In this document: positions 8,770 to 14,401 of the stretch, one piece after another
Layout: the number at the start of each line of letters is the position of its first letter
Position numbering within the stretch: position 1 is the stretch's first letter
Source of the DNA: an uncultured Bacilli bacterium
Lineage (GTDB): Bacteria > Bacillota_I > Bacilli_A > RF39 > UBA660
Reading direction: 5' to 3'
DNA length: 61,044 nt
NCBI GenBank assembly: GCA_947626695.1
Contig: CANQTE010000002.1
Span: forward strand, 1 to 61,044
Notes under the pieces: generated by a model
What the model saw: the letters and a program-made list of their open reading frames with translations, nothing else
What the model was told of the DNA's origin: nothing
Databases searched by the model: none
Position numbers and translations under genes: made by a program

Positions 8770-9675
8770 ATGAAAAAGGGTTTGAAAGTAATAAGTTTAA
8801 TTATTTGCTTATTTTTTCTAAGTGGTTGTATAAATAGTGATATCTATATGAGTATAGATGAGTTTAAAAGTGTTGATTTTAAAATGAGTTCAAGTTTAGA
8901 CATATTAGGTTTTATGGAAAATATGCTAAAAAATGAAGAATTAGCCCAATCTTTTAAAGAGGAAATAGCAAATATAAATTGTAGGAATATTTGTGAGGAA
9001 GAAGATACAAATTGTATAGATTCTTGTGTTAGTAGTGAAGTATTAAAAATAAAAGAAATATCAAAAGAAGATATAAAAAAATATTTAGATAATAATTTTG
9101 GCAGTGATATTTTAAGTGAAGAAAACGAAGATATTGAAATTTATAAAAAAGCAGGATTTAATGTAGATACTAAAAAAGATGAAGAAAATTTTAAAGTAAC
9201 AGTTGACATATCTAAACATTTTAATAATATAGACGAAATTACTACAGATAATGATAAAGAAATTAATATTACAGATTTTCTTAAGGGAAATAGTAAATAT
9301 TTATTTATAAAAAATGCAAATGGTAATTATAAATGTAATTTAAAAGTAGATTCTAAAGGAGAAAATTTAGACTATTTAACTATTGATACATATAGTTTAA
9401 GTAATTTATTTAACTATACTTATAAGGTTACTTTACCTGTAAAGGCTATTAATAATAATGCAAATAAAATATCTAGTGATGGAAAAACACTTAATTGGAC
9501 TTTAGAACCTTTTAAAGAAAATAATATAACATATGAATTTAATTTAAATAATATAAATAAAGAGAAAATAACTAAAAATACTCCTTTAAAAATAATGGCT
9601 TATGCTTTAATTGGAGGAGGAACTTTTATTGGTTTAGTAACAATCATAATTTATTCAACAACTAATAAAAAATAA
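8770..9675 (+). CDS. hypothetical lipoprotein with a C-terminal membrane anchor
   Basis: Lipobox FFLSGC, a Cys-rich acidic ectodomain, and the C-terminal hydrophobic helix MAYALIGGGTFIGLVTIIIY. Confidence 0.6.
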   Translation: MKKGLKVISLIICLFFLSGCINSDIYMSIDEFKSVDFKMSSSLDILGFMENMLKNEELAQSFKEEIANINCRNICEEEDTNCIDSCVSSEVLKIKEISKEDIKKYLDNNFGSDILSEENEDIEIYKKAGFNVDTKKDEENFKVTVDISKHFNNIDEITTDNDKEINITDFLKGNSKYLFIKNANGNYKCNLKVDSKGENLDYLTIDTYSLSNLFNYTYKVTLPVKAINNNANKISSDGKTLNWTLEPFKENNITYEFNLNNINKEKITKNTPLKIMAYALIGGGTFIGLVTIIIYSTTNKK

Positions 9676-11167: not shown

Positions 11168-13435
11168 ATGAAATTTAAAATAACCCCAAAAGATTTTTTG
11201 ATTTTTTGTCTATATTGTGTTTTATTATTGTATTTGTGTTCTATTGCAGTACTTAATTTTTCTTCCTTTTTAAATGATGGAAAGTTTTATGGCTTAATTC
11301 CCTTTAAAGCTTTTACAAAAGATTATATTGGTATAACTTTATTTATGTTTGTAGCGTCTTTAATAATAGTTTTTACATCTGTTTCTAGTTATGTTTTTAA
11401 TAAAGAAAAAGGGAAAGGAATAGGACTTAAATTAGGAGAAAAAAGTGAAAATGGTTATGCTAGATGGAGTACAGATAAAGAAATTAAAACTGATACTGAT
11501 ATAGTTAAAATTAATCCTCGAGATGAAGTTTTAACTGCCGCGGGTATTCCTTTAATTAATAATGGTAAAGAAATATGGGTTGACAATGGTAGTTATCATA
11601 ATTTAGTAATTGGTTCTACTGGTTCTGGTAAAACTCAAACAATAGTAAAACCAATGGTTAATATATTAGCTAAAAAAGGTGAATCTATGATTATTACTGA
11701 CCCTAAAGGTGAAATATATAAATATGCTGCAGATGCCCTAAAAAAACAAGGGTATAAAATAGTTGTTTTAAATTTTAGAGAACCTAATCATGGTAATGCT
11801 TGGAACCCTTTAACTCTTCCATATAAGTATTTTAAAGCAGGTAATACTGATAAATCAACAGAATTATTAGATGACGTTGCCTTAAATATATTATATGACC
11901 AATCTAAAAAGGGAAATGATTCTGATTTCTGGGAAAAGAGTGCAGCCGATTATTTTTCAGGATTAGCTTTAGGTTTATTTTATGATGCAAAAGAAAAAGA
12001 AGTTAATTTAAATAGTATTAACTATATGAGTACAACCGGAGAAGAAAGATATGCTACATCGACTTATATTAAAGAATATTTCACAATGAAAGGTGAAGAT
12101 TCTAGCCCTTATATCTTTGCCTCTAATACTATAAATGCTCCAAGTGATACAAAAGGTGGTATTTTATCGACATTTAGACAAAAAATAAGGTTATTCTCAT
12201 CACGTGAAAGTTTAAGTGAAATGCTTGCTTATAGTGATTTTGATATGTCTAATATTGGTAAAGAAAAGACTGCCGTTTTTATGATTATTCATGACGAAAA
12301 AAAGACTTATCATGCTTTAATGACAATATTTATTAAACAATGTTATGAAACATTAATTGATGTAGCCCAAGAAAGTGGGGGAAAACTACCATTTAGAACT
12401 AATTTTATCTTAGATGAGTTTGCTAATATGCCTCCTTTAAAAGATGTTGATTCTATGGTCAGTGCCGCGCGTTCCAGAGATATTCGTTTTACATTTATTA
12501 TTCAAAACTTTGCCCAATTAAATGATGTTTATGGTAAAGAAGTAGGTGAGATTATTAAAGGCAACTGTGGTAATTTAATTTATTTAATTAGTACTGAACT
12601 TGCCGCGTTAGAAGAAATATCTAAAATGTGTGGAGAAGTTAAGTCAAAAGAAAAAGATAAAACGGCCTCTACTCCATTAATAACTGTCTCAGACCTTCAA
12701 AAATTAAAATTATTTGAAGCTATAATTATTAGATTAAGAAAAAACCCTTTTAGAACAAAATTAAAACCAGATTTTGAAATGGACTGGGGTATTGAAAGGG
12801 AAGAAGCACCTTACCCAGAAAGAAAAATAGAAAAAATAGAAATGTTTGATGTTAAAAAATATGTAACAGAAGAAAGACGTAAGCAAATGATGAGTAATTT
12901 AGAAAATAAGGATGCATCTAAAGATTTTAGTAATCCTTTTGCTAATCCTTTTGGAATGAGTTCACCTTTTGCGTCTCCTTTTGGAGGGATGGGTCTACCT
13001 ATGGGGGACAGTTTTAAACCAAGCACACCATCAAAACCTGCGATGCCTTTTAGTGATTCTCCAGCTTTTAATAAACCGATTGGTAGTCTAACAGACCAAG
13101 AAATAGATGCCATGATGAAAGATATTGATAAAAGACTTCAAGAGTTAGACGAAGAAGAAGCACGAAGTAAAGCAAAAAATAATGTAGCCAATCCAATTAA
13201 TACACCAGTAGATTTACCAAAAACGGTGGAAAAAGATAATATTATAAATGAAATAAAGGAAGAACCTAAAATAGAAGAAAGTAAGAAAGTAGAAGAAATA
13301 TCAAATATTGCAAATACACCAAAAACAAGTGAAATAAACGATAAACCAAAAATTAATGTTGATGCTGATAGTATCATAGTTAATGAAAATGTAGTTACCG
13401 ATGACGAATTTTTTGACGATTTCTTTAATGAATAA
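11168..13435 (+). CDS. type IV coupling protein, VirD4/TraG family, with a long low-complexity C-terminal tail
   Basis: Two N-terminal TM helices, Walker A VIGSTGSGKTQTIVKP, Walker B NFILDEFANMPPL, and IIQNFAQL. The roughly 200-aa tail has NPFANPFGMSSPFASPFGG repeats and the acidic-aromatic end DDEFFDDFFNE. Confidence 0.85.
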   Translation: MKFKITPKDFLIFCLYCVLLLYLCSIAVLNFSSFLNDGKFYGLIPFKAFTKDYIGITLFMFVASLIIVFTSVSSYVFNKEKGKGIGLKLGEKSENGYARWSTDKEIKTDTDIVKINPRDEVLTAAGIPLINNGKEIWVDNGSYHNLVIGSTGSGKTQTIVKPMVNILAKKGESMIITDPKGEIYKYAADALKKQGYKIVVLNFREPNHGNAWNPLTLPYKYFKAGNTDKSTELLDDVALNILYDQSKKGNDSDFWEKSAADYFSGLALGLFYDAKEKEVNLNSINYMSTTGEERYATSTYIKEYFTMKGEDSSPYIFASNTINAPSDTKGGILSTFRQKIRLFSSRESLSEMLAYSDFDMSNIGKEKTAVFMIIHDEKKTYHALMTIFIKQCYETLIDVAQESGGKLPFRTNFILDEFANMPPLKDVDSMVSAARSRDIRFTFIIQNFAQLNDVYGKEVGEIIKGNCGNLIYLISTELAALEEISKMCGEVKSKEKDKTASTPLITVSDLQKLKLFEAIIIRLRKNPFRTKLKPDFEMDWGIEREEAPYPERKIEKIEMFDVKKYVTEERRKQMMSNLENKDASKDFSNPFANPFGMSSPFASPFGGMGLPMGDSFKPSTPSKPAMPFSDSPAFNKPIGSLTDQEIDAMMKDIDKRLQELDEEEARSKAKNNVANPINTPVDLPKTVEKDNIINEIKEEPKIEESKKVEEISNIANTPKTSEINDKPKINVDADSIIVNENVVTDDEFFDDFFNE

Positions 13436-13491
13436 GAAAAATTCTAATTTATTACTTGCATTTTTAATAAAAATATGTATATAATATTAAT

Positions 13492-13612
13492 AGAAATTGC
13501 AAAGAAATTTCTTAAGGACAAAAAAGAGATGCCATTTGTCGGTGTTCTCTAGTCCAATTTATGAGCTTTTGAACACCTTATCAATGAAGATATGGTGTTC
13601 TAATTTTATTTG
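13492..13612 (+). ncRNA. candidate small RNA, copy A (promoter, 5' hairpin, terminator)
   Basis: TTGCAT-18-TATAAT (13456-13485). The 5' hairpin is AGAAATT/AATTTCT. The terminator is GAACACCTTATC-AATGAA-GATATGGTGTTC (13571-13600) followed by TAATTTTATTT. No plus-strand ORF. Confidence 0.45.
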
Positions 13613-13795
13613 CCAGTATGCTCTCGTTGAATTAGCACTAAAAGTACTACTAGAATAACTAAGTATTCCATAATTCTCCTTGACCATAGGACATCACCTC
13701 TTTCCAAATTAGTATTTATTTAATAATCAAAAATTTTTAATTAATATTTAATATAATAATTGGACTGAGGTAGAACACCAACCTTTGGCATCTCT
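13525..13795. repeat. imperfect inverted repeats (13525-13559 and 13758-13795) bounding the small ORF
   Basis: The left arm is AGAGATGCCATTTGTCGGTGTTCTCTAGTCCAATT. The reverse complement of the right arm is AGAGATGCCAAAGGTTGGTGTTCTACCTCAGTCCAATT. Confidence 0.8.
13559..13687 (-). CDS. 42-codon small ORF (MVKENYGILSYSSSTFSANSTRAYWQIKLEHHIFIDKVFKSS), not in the supplied track
   Basis: Strong SD AAAGAGGTGA 6 nt before the ATG. It lies between 35/38-nt inverted repeats, and its 3' third is antisense to the copy-A terminator. Confidence 0.35.
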   Translation of the reverse strand: MVKENYGILSYSSSTFSANSTRAYWQIKLEHHIFIDKVFKSS

Positions 13796-13919
13796 ATTTA
13801 ATATTATAATATATTTATTAGAAAAAAGCTATTAAAATTTATACATATTACAGTACTTTTTATATTAAAATTTTAATTTAATACTTGTATTTTTAATAAA
13901 AGTAGGTTATAGTATAAAT

Positions 13920-14035
13920 AGAAATCGCAAAGATTTCTAAAAGACAAAAAGAGATATCTTTGTTGGCGTTCTCTAGTCCAATATAATTGTAGCTTGAACA
14001 TCTTATCAATGAAGATATGGTGTTCCTTTTTATTC
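13920..14035 (+). ncRNA. candidate small RNA or leader, copy C (paralogue of copy A)
   Basis: TTGTAT-17-TATAGT (13885-13913). The 5' hairpin AGAAATC/GATTTCT shows a compensatory change relative to copy A. It has the same AGAGAT...GTTCTCTAGTCCAAT core and the terminator 13996-14025 followed by CTTTTT. Confidence 0.45.
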
Positions 14036-14054
14036 CTTTGGATGATTGTTGAAT

Positions 14055-14078
14055 TAGTAGTAGTAATACTACTATTTT
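14055..14078 (+). terminator. hairpin TAGTAGTA-GTAA-TACTACTA followed by TTTT
   Basis: An 8-bp perfect stem, a GNRA-type loop and a T run. Confidence 0.5.
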
Positions 14079-14089
14079 AATTTTCTTAG

Positions 14090-14112
14090 GGCCTTTATTA
14101 TAAAGCCTTTTT
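14090..14112 (+). terminator. hairpin GGC(C)TTTA-TTA-TAAAGCC followed by TTTTT, just upstream of the rhodanese gene
   Basis: A 7-bp stem with one bulge followed by a T run. Confidence 0.5.
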
Positions 14113-14134
14113 AAATTTTTTAATAATATATACT

Positions 14135-14401
14135 GTGATTACTATGAAAAGATTAGACATAAAAGATTATAATAAAAATAAAGGCATATTAATTGATATT
14201 CAAAATAAAATAGATTATAATGACTATCATCACCCAGATAGCATAAATATTCCTTATGAAACATTACTTCTTAATTATAAAACATTGCTTGATAAAAATA
14301 AAAAGTATTATATTGTTTGTAATAAAGGAGTTAAATCTCGTAAAGCAGTAGCCATATTAGAATTTTATGGTTATGATGTTACTCAAATGAGCTATGAGTA
14401 A
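14135..14401 (+). CDS. single-domain rhodanese-like sulfurtransferase
   Basis: Active-site loop CNKGVKSRKA and about 88 aa. The start is uncertain (GTG 14135 or ATG 14144) and there is no clear SD. Confidence 0.7.
   Translation: MITMKRLDIKDYNKNKGILIDIQNKIDYNDYHHPDSINIPYETLLLNYKTLLDKNKKYYIVCNKGVKSRKAVAILEFYGYDVTQMSYE

Follow-up and report, generated by a model that had tools for sequence, protein, structure and literature searches.

What kind of genetic unit is formed by two look-alike, small RNA (sRNA)-like modules that lie in tandem in contig CANQTE010000002.1, from an uncultured Bacilli bacterium of the rabbit gut with ~25% GC? The stretch analyzed, called the window here, comprises 61,044 nucleotides (nt) of this contig. 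An earlier note, made from the sequence alone, regarded the modules (copies A and C) as independent RNAs and proposed an antiterminator/terminator switch for one of them. We report a third, inverted copy of their core (copy B) and a conserved open reading frame (ORF) for a small hydrophobic peptide that converges with copy A. With a probability of roughly 0.6, we read the locus as an uncatalogued type I toxin-antitoxin (TA) family in which, as in Gram-positive families, the antisense RNA lies on the 3′ side, accompanied by a partial tandem duplicate.

The proposed mechanism is as follows. A minus-strand mRNA starting at about 13795 would open with the core and continue through an AU-rich 5′ untranslated region (UTR) to the ORF for a single-helix hydrophobic peptide of 21 amino acids (aa; 13671->13606), the putative toxin. 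The plus-strand sRNA of copy A, transcribed convergently from the 3′ side, would be the antitoxin. The peptide mRNA would read into the sRNA gene, where its 3′ UTR would be perfectly complementary to the sRNA, and sRNA binding would produce a long duplex leading to mRNA decay (RNase III-type), to refolding, or to both. A CCUC element in the 5′ core of the mRNA would act as an anti-Shine-Dalgarno (anti-SD) sequence masking a Shine-Dalgarno (SD) sequence, and the same 5′ core would pair with the antisense core in the 3′ part, closing the molecule. Copy C would supply an additional, orphan antitoxin-like RNA.

Two RNA modules and a convergent peptide gene

The features of the locus, in window coordinates, are these (MFE, minimum free energy).

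13456-13485, plus strand: sRNA A promoter-like site; -35 TTGCAT, AAAATATG block and TATAAT kept in the alignment with the related L001/L002 cassette.
13492-13610, plus strand: predicted sRNA A, candidate antitoxin, about 115-120 nt; MFE -29.7 kcal/mol, three hairpins.
13492-13512, plus strand: sRNA A 5′ hairpin.
13516-13555, plus strand: sRNA A central hairpin, GGAC...AGAGAUGCC/GGUGUUCUCU...GUCC, with G-U pairs.
13571-13600, plus strand: sRNA A terminator hairpin.
13601-13612, plus strand: sRNA A U tract.
13516-13565, minus strand: antisense of the sRNA core with a U6 run; possible 3′ end of the peptide mRNA and partner of copy B by duplex prediction.
13559-13687, minus strand: overlapping upstream ORF (ORF1), 42 aa, hydrophilic, in another frame, with ATG at 13687.
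13606-13671, minus strand: small ORF, candidate toxin, MEYLVILVVLLVLIQREHTGK, 21 aa; SD AAGGAGA at 13681-13675.
13759-13795, minus strand: core copy B, AGAGATGCCAAAGGTTGGTGTTCTACCTCAGTCCAAT, where the peptide mRNA is predicted to begin; found by motif search and as a 28-nt inverted repeat, 82% complementary.
13803-13835, minus strand: promoter-like site for the peptide mRNA; TATAAT (13808-13803), 7 nt ahead of the core, in a -10 block conserved with L001/L002.
13885-13913, plus strand: sRNA C promoter-like site, inside the duplication.
13920-14034, plus strand: predicted sRNA C, orphan duplicate, from MFE fold and covariance model.
13920-13938, plus strand: sRNA C 5′ hairpin.
13943-13979, plus strand: sRNA C central hairpin, weakened.
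13996-14025, plus strand: sRNA C terminator, followed by a U run.
14030-14074, minus strand: remnant of a second peptide gene (..IVVLLLLIQQSSKGI..), from repeat and duplication alignments.

The earlier note described each module as a promoter-like site, a 5′ hairpin, a core and a terminator-like hairpin, and all of these are where it placed them. The modules form a direct duplication (13437-13652 against 13866-14074, 209-216 nt) that is 87.7% identical and whose similarity ends at both edges. In copy A an 18-nt spacer separates TTGCAT (13456-13461) from TATAAT (13480-13485), and the presumed start is at 13492; in copy C the spacer between TTGTAT (13885-13890) and TATAGT (13908-13913) is 17 nt long, and the presumed start is at 13920. 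By the rule of our scan the -35 boxes of both copies match at three of six positions. The core AGAGAT..GG(T/C)GTTCTCTAGTCCAAT is likewise present in both. The terminators had been called identical; both copies do contain the hairpin GAACA(C/T)CTTATC-AATGAA-GATATGGTGTTC and a T-rich run, but the hairpins match at 29 of 30 positions. This 30-nt hairpin, GAACA(C/T)CTTATCAATGAAGATATGGTGTTC, with a predicted stability of ~ -14.4 kcal/mol, occurs exactly twice in the 61 kb of the window against 0 expected by chance. A simple terminator scan flagged it in neither copy, and an internal U x U mismatch may account for this. Copies A and C fold better than their shuffled versions (z -3.1 and -3.2, respectively), and they score 132 and 124.7 bits with a covariance model. 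Given the duplication, the number of hairpin occurrences, the z-scores and the model scores, the modules are not chance.

A compensatory base change had been noted in the 5′ hairpin. The 7-bp hairpins, AGAAAUU/AAUUUCU in copy A and AGAAAUC/GAUUUCU in copy C, appear in both MFE folds, and the change from U-A to C-G is real and structurally compensatory; it is accompanied, however, by the loss of 2 nt, which draws a G of the former loop into the stem, and so is no clean column-for-column swap. The modules had also been said to have no plus-strand ORF. A mechanically called 53-aa ORF with a TTG start (13497-13658, plus strand) does overlap copy A, but it lacks an SD and copy C has no counterpart, and the description as non-coding stands.

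A search with cmscan against Rfam 15 gave no match to the locus on either strand, in line with the failure of the first reading to recognize a family by eye. At gathering thresholds the whole window yielded two tRNAs and a DUF3800-VII RNA, all outside the locus, and at E <= 10 the region 13300-14250 yielded spurious (eukaryotic) miRNA and snoRNA matches to the terminator only. The DUF3800-VII match (RF02967; 35518-35616, plus strand; 56.3 bits, gathering score 36.2) points to a candidate structured RNA unrelated to the sRNA locus.

The third copy of the core, which the first reading had missed, runs on the minus strand from 13795 to 13759. It carries a CCUC insertion (the anti-SD) that the sRNA cores do not have, and its arrangement is identical in L001/L002. 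Downstream of it on the minus strand lies an AU-rich leader and then the MEYLVILVVLLVLIQREHTGK ORF, which is convergent with sRNA A and whose stop codon (13608-13606) lies beneath the sRNA U tract. The predicted mRNA would be ~190-310 nt long. Its peptide, 21 aa in the window and 23 aa in L002, consists of one hydrophobic helix and a basic tail, with a mean hydropathy over residues 4-15 of 3.4 and 3.9, respectively. In comparisons with Pfam (hmmscan, E <= 0.1), NCBIfam (E <= 10), PADLOC and PHROGs neither the peptide nor ORF1 matched a family, and a search of the searchable literature for the string MEYLVI found nothing.

Which of the two overlapping frames matters can be judged from their divergence. 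Between the window and L002 the first six codons of the hydrophobic ORF differ at five nucleotides, and all five differences are synonymous; beyond these codons the hydrophobic helix and basic tail are kept. ORF1 is preceded by a near-consensus SD block, GGAAAGAGGTGAT (13705-13693), and the GAGGTGA.GTCC block with its ATG is kept in L001/L002, but the ORF1 peptides are only 26% identical. This pattern indicates that the hydrophobic small ORF, and not ORF1, is under protein-level selection. ORF1 may be a leader or coupling frame in the manner of mok, or the SD block may be a pairing partner of the 5′ CCUC..GUCC segment.

The hairpin shared by the two convergent transcripts has a U tract on the plus strand only; on the minus strand it is followed by AAAAGCUCAUAAAUU. 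A minus-strand transcript is therefore expected to run on into the sRNA gene. The next minus-strand terminator-like feature is the antisense core with its U5-6 (at about 13520 in the window and about 825 in L002). If the mRNA reads past 13600 to this antisense core, and on that condition only, the model suggests a 3′ UTR fully complementary to the convergent, 115-125-nt sRNA.

Copy C is followed by a start-less remnant, and therefore looks like a partial duplicate. The remnant covers the 3′ third of the peptide gene only, without a start codon, an SD or an in-frame stop at the homologous place, and its likeness to the intact gene stops at 14074. The central hairpin of copy C has an A x C mismatch and is missing from the MFE fold; in a strain variant from the same sample (13957 T>C and 13967 C>T) two Watson-Crick pairs of this hairpin are restored. 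On this evidence copy C looks like an orphan antitoxin-like RNA gene left by partial tandem duplication. Motif and covariance model searches found no true extra copy in the window; a motif match at 9495-9508 lies inside a coding region without the other elements and was rejected as chance.

Between sRNA C and a rhodanese gene (14135-14401) the plus strand has another terminator-like hairpin (14090-14112), GGC(C)TTTAT-T-ATAAAGCC with T5 after it. Near it, strains in the same sample differ by a 10-nt insertion, TTAAAATTAA, after 14076, and by G>T at 14051.

Relatives and setting of the cassette

An exact-pattern scan for the core over 185,579 species genomes found two true loci, L001 and L002, both in contigs of metagenome-assembled genomes (MAGs) of rabbit-gut Bacilli and both with the cassette in a prophage. 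Two further matches, L003 in an alphaproteobacterial MAG and L004 in an Anaerolineales MAG, were set aside with their sequences unread as probable chance matches. L001 and L002 contain the whole cassette in the same element order as the window.

sRNA promoter: TTGCAT, 18-nt spacer, TATAAT.
5′ hairpin, differing in sequence from that of the window: AGAAAGAA/UUCUUUCU, followed by an A-run.
Core: AGAGATGCCGTTTTGATGGTGTTCTCAGTCCAAT.
Terminator hairpin: GAACACC..GGTGTTC with a T7 run.
Convergent ORF: MEYLVIFAIILILVIRIIGEPKK.
Next in the DNA order: GAGGTGA.GTCC-ATG block, inverted core with CCTC insertion, TATAAT.

The cassette alignment thus gives an architecture common to the window and L001/L002, made of sRNA promoter, 5′ hairpin, A-run, core, terminator, convergent ORF, SD blocks, inverted core and -10 box. 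The spacers between these elements are ~20-40% diverged between copy A of the window and the L001/L002 cassette, with every element intact, and the homologous RNAs retain the three-hairpin layout. The L001 equivalent of the peptide-mRNA promoter reads TTGTAA, 17-nt spacer, TATAAT. A variant of the L002 type has GGGG in place of GAGG in the first SD (SD1), and its pairing with CCUC is kept through wobble.

The L002 cassette lies at the end of its prophage, between an HNH endonuclease gene and endolysin/holin genes. A related prophage (L025), whose flanks are 81-86% identical to those of L002, lacks exactly L002 689-1147 (459 bp), and a variant contig from the same sample breaks at the L002 cassette junction. 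The cassette is therefore a discrete accessory unit, gained or lost as a 459-bp insertion or deletion. None of five examined homologues of the flanking HNH gene has it.

Two side observations concern these prophage loci. At L002 690-717 (plus strand), and likewise in L001, a stronger promoter-like site (TTGACT, 16-nt spacer, TATAAT) lies ~65 nt upstream of the sRNA promoter; it overlaps the HNH stop codon and could yield a 5′-extended sRNA, and the window copy is without a counterpart. At L002 2684-3820 (minus strand) a 378-aa prophage ORF that adjoins tail-fibre-like genes resembles reverse transcriptase (YMDD-like motif) and may be part of a diversity-generating retroelement.

Searches for more relatives gave little. 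All three matches in a scan of metagenome contigs fall in coding sequence of unrelated genes, and viral contigs, scanned separately for the core, the SD1 block, the core together with the terminator, and the start of the toxin gene, gave chance matches only. The BLASTN search proposed at the outset was made against plasmids and phages with both cassettes as query, and returned nothing or AT-rich promoter noise only. A protein search with an ORF1 profile found only an L002-like protein, and looking up this protein of the ORF1 type gave no new cassette. The cassette family is very rare in current data.

The window cassette has a lone type IV secretion system (T4SS) coupling-protein gene on one side and the rhodanese gene on the other, with housekeeping genes around and no recombinase gene within about 9 kb. 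The cassette is accessory DNA, found elsewhere at a prophage end and here beside the lone coupling-protein gene. Accessory placement on mobile elements fits type I TA modules. The title of one report, on foreign toxin genes silenced via RNase III, points to mobile-element placement too (PMC3531473).

The coupling protein (11168-13435, plus strand; 755 aa) has T4SS-DNA_transf, TraG-D_C and TrwB domains; its long C-terminal tail is of low complexity, acidic and rich in proline. The gene is isolated in a housekeeping setting (uppS, znuA, thiI), and about 10 kb around it contain no further gene for conjugation. A sequencing run from another study and organism (X5, ‘organism A’) contains sequence related to window 13344-13438, the 3′ end of the coupling-protein gene, and to 14060-14200, upstream of the rhodanese gene. 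It diverges after the coupling-protein gene, and that relative appears to be without sRNA A at this site.

Predicted pairing and competing explanations

The T1TAdb definition of type I systems gives a toxin of 20-60 aa, an antisense RNA of 60-200 nt that lies on the 3′ side in Gram-positive families, and a toxin mRNA of 150-400 nt whose key determinants are SD/anti-SD pairs, 5′ and terminal stem-loops and 5′-3′ long-distance interactions (PMC8594479). The 21- and 23-aa hydrophobic ORFs fall within the toxin range, the predicted length of the sRNA and its place on the 3′ side fit as well, and the size of the mRNA and its SD/anti-SD or 5′-3′ interactions agree with the definition in silico only. 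The conserved convergent ORF, the conserved architecture, the three-hairpin folds of the sRNAs, these sizes and mRNA features, the accessory placement and the lack of a sense-strand gene downstream of the sRNA together support the type I TA reading.

Pairing predictions bear on how such a system would work. The first 40 nt of the mRNA and the antisense core form a duplex of -46.9 kcal/mol in the window and -44.2 kcal/mol in L002, whereas shuffled sequences average -12.5 +/- 3.0 kcal/mol and none of 1000 reaches the observed value. The predicted closure of the mRNA 5′ end on its 3′ end involves roughly 35 bp, and the MFE folds of the whole mRNA adopt it when the antisense-core segment is included. 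In MFE folds the partner of the mRNA-core CCUC is the first SD at the window locus and the SD of the toxin at L002. Prediction of a global sRNA-mRNA duplex was uninformative, shuffled sequences scoring equally.

In L002 the loop and 3′ arm of the sRNA 5′ hairpin (UCCAUUUCUUUCU, 789-810) are complementary to the toxin SD and AUG, GGAGGGAAAUGGA (967-979), over 13 consecutive pairs (-15.7 kcal/mol), which would allow pairing in trans, outside the overlap, in the manner of SprA1AS. We did not adopt this as a general mechanism, the pairing not being significant in the window. An ‘arm swap’ duplex between two cores (-18 to -21 kcal/mol) was also set aside, as it offers no net gain over the two intramolecular hairpins. 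Closure of the mRNA, masking by the anti-SD and the schemes of sRNA/mRNA pairing are each, as models, much less likely than the type I TA reading itself.

A further and rather unlikely elaboration is that the sRNA is a sequence mimic of the toxin-mRNA 5′ end. Sharing the same ~35-nt core, it would compete for the antisense core in the 3′ UTR and displace a strand of the closing helix, and the displaced 5′ segment, which alone has the CCUC, would switch the accessibility of the SD. If true, type I systems would gain a mode of repression that has not been described for them, in a new family so far confined to uncultured, very AT-rich gut Bacilli.

Several points weigh against the type I TA reading. 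No toxin family was matched by the peptide, which is at the lower edge of the toxin size range. The SD-to-AUG spacing of the peptide ORF is short (4 nt), a much stronger SD serves the overlapping, non-conserved ORF1, and the promoter-like site of the peptide mRNA has a poor -35 in the window. For the pairing of the sRNA 5′ hairpin with the toxin start, p is about 0.014 in L002, which is significant, and about 0.12 in the window, which is not. The natural variants give mixed signals (that of copy C and that of SD1 in the L002 type). Only two independent lineages are known. The 5′ hairpin differs in sequence in L001/L002 with its layout kept; the core and terminator pairs show no double compensatory change, because only the two lineages are known and these pairs are invariant. 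Finally, a search for RNA sequencing runs that cover the locus found none; the promoters, transcript ends and sRNA/mRNA overlap are all predictions, and toxicity and mechanism are putative.

The strongest competing explanation, which we nevertheless consider unlikely, is a gene for a small membrane peptide under antisense-RNA control with no TA function, such as a phage lysis, immunity or superinfection-related peptide. The place of the L002 cassette, between the HNH gene and the endolysin/holin genes of a prophage, would suit such a peptide, as would the missing toxin-family match. In the window, however, the cassette has no phage lysis genes nearby and sits among housekeeping genes. Moreover, tight repression of type I toxin mRNAs is ascribed to just such features as the anti-SD, a long and structured 5′ UTR and the 5′-3′ closure predicted here (PMC8594479), and an extra orphan repressor RNA fits a need to silence the product.

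Distinctly less probable is the view of the first reading, in which each module acts on its own, as a trans-acting sRNA or a cis-acting attenuator, with no relation to the minus-strand ORF. The segment GGTGTTC was correctly located at 13541-13547 of copy A, and in the RNA it is perfectly complementary to the 5′ arm of the terminator there and in L001/L002; copy C, moreover, lies upstream of the sense-strand rhodanese gene. Yet the GGUGUUC/GAACACC complementarity exists because the core repeats the 3′ arm of the terminator. The proposed antiterminator/terminator switch is not supported: copy A and the L001/L002 copies have no sense-strand gene downstream, the next feature being the convergent ORF, and no Rfam cis-regulatory, riboswitch or leader family was matched. 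For copy C the antiterminator pairing is weakened (GGCGUUC against GAACAUC), and the plus-strand hairpin at 14090-14112 separates it from the rhodanese gene. This view also leaves the conserved convergent ORF and the inverted third core unexplained.

An inverton is very improbable. The inverted cores (13521-13557 and 13759-13799) would be recombination sites, and a flip of the ~200-bp segment would bring the peptide ORF under the stronger sRNA promoter and leave the other promoter reading into the terminator. The inverted repeats do flank a short segment with an ORF and a one-directional terminator, in a near-symmetrical layout kept in L002. The arms, however, are only 82% complementary, with indels, and what sets one arm apart from the other (CCUC insertion, loops) recurs unchanged in two diverged loci. 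G-U pairs occur in either arm only in the transcribed sense, and the central hairpin is more stable in that sense (-12.1 kcal/mol) than in antisense (-7.3 kcal/mol). No recombinase gene lies in the ~9 kb around, and the flipped orientation was seen in no assembled contig, a weak test since contigs drop rare variants.

Equally hard to credit are decaying repeats of no present function, such as remnants of mobile-element ends, for although copy C is degenerating (damaged central hairpin, truncated ORF), the mRNA promoter is weak in the window and the family is extremely rare in databases, the elements of copy A and of the L001/L002 cassette are all intact despite the divergence of their spacers, and the changes in the first six ORF codons are all synonymous.

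If confirmed, the type I TA reading would add a new family with toxins among the shortest in Gram-positive systems, in an uncultured low-GC gut Bacilli lineage without described ones, and would show that such cassettes move as ~460-bp units between prophage and chromosomal sites. The same-sense repeat in the antitoxin and the toxin-mRNA 5′ end would make a clean case for the interplay of 5′-3′ closure and antisense binding. The covariance model and the peptide motif could serve to annotate similar loci that are now missed by gene callers and Rfam. This would be a modest advance in a well-known class, with no new principle.

Comparison with known type I systems

hok/mok/sok and AapA1/IsoA1. Like these Gram-negative systems the cassette has a predicted 5′-3′ pairing that would close the toxin mRNA, and an anti-SD element. 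The overlapping upstream frame with a strong SD (ORF1) recalls mok, and leader ORFs are known for Hok/Sok and Ldr/Rdl (PMC8594479). The antisense RNA of these systems, however, lies inside the 5′ part of the mRNA or the ORF, while that of the cassette is on the 3′ side; there is no sequence similarity to the cassette, and the hosts belong to another phylum.

Fst/RNAII (par of pAD1) and SprA1/SprA1AS. Here too the RNAs are convergent and meet at a shared hairpin, and repeated elements lie near the 5′ ends of both RNAs. The par repeats are direct in DNA, and so the two RNAs are complementary there. The cassette repeats are instead inverted in DNA, so both of its RNAs carry the same-sense sequence, and its shared hairpin is not bidirectional, as the toxin strand lacks a U tract there. 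These systems can also pair outside the overlap (PMC8594479), and the 13-bp complementarity between the L002 sRNA 5′ hairpin and the toxin SD and AUG offers a candidate counterpart. In the Pfam, NCBIfam and Rfam searches described above, at the same thresholds, nothing matched an Fst-type toxin or an RNAII-type antitoxin.

Bacillus-type systems. Toxins of the TxpA/BsrG/BsrE/YonT type are about 30-59 aa long, and the cassette peptide is much shorter (21-23 aa). In layout the cassette resembles TxpA/RatA, BsrG/SR4, BsrE/SR5 and YonT, with convergent toxin mRNA and sRNA and the sRNA on the 3′ side (PMC8594479). A small hydrophobic peptide and a place in prophage or accessory DNA are shared as well, the latter in keeping with the title of PMC3531473, and a long duplex leading to decay would be expected in both. 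For SR4 a structure change around the SD is reported (PMC3834814), which would also be possible for the cassette sRNA. There is no similarity to the cassette in RNA or peptide, by sequence or by model. The antisense RNAs of the Bacillus-type families overlap the toxin ORF (PMC8594479), whereas sRNA A, with a predicted end at about 13608-13612 against a stop region at 13606-13608, would overlap it by at most 5 nt. A last and unusual difference from the Bacillus-type systems is that the cassette sRNA repeats ~35 nt of the mRNA 5′ end in the same sense.

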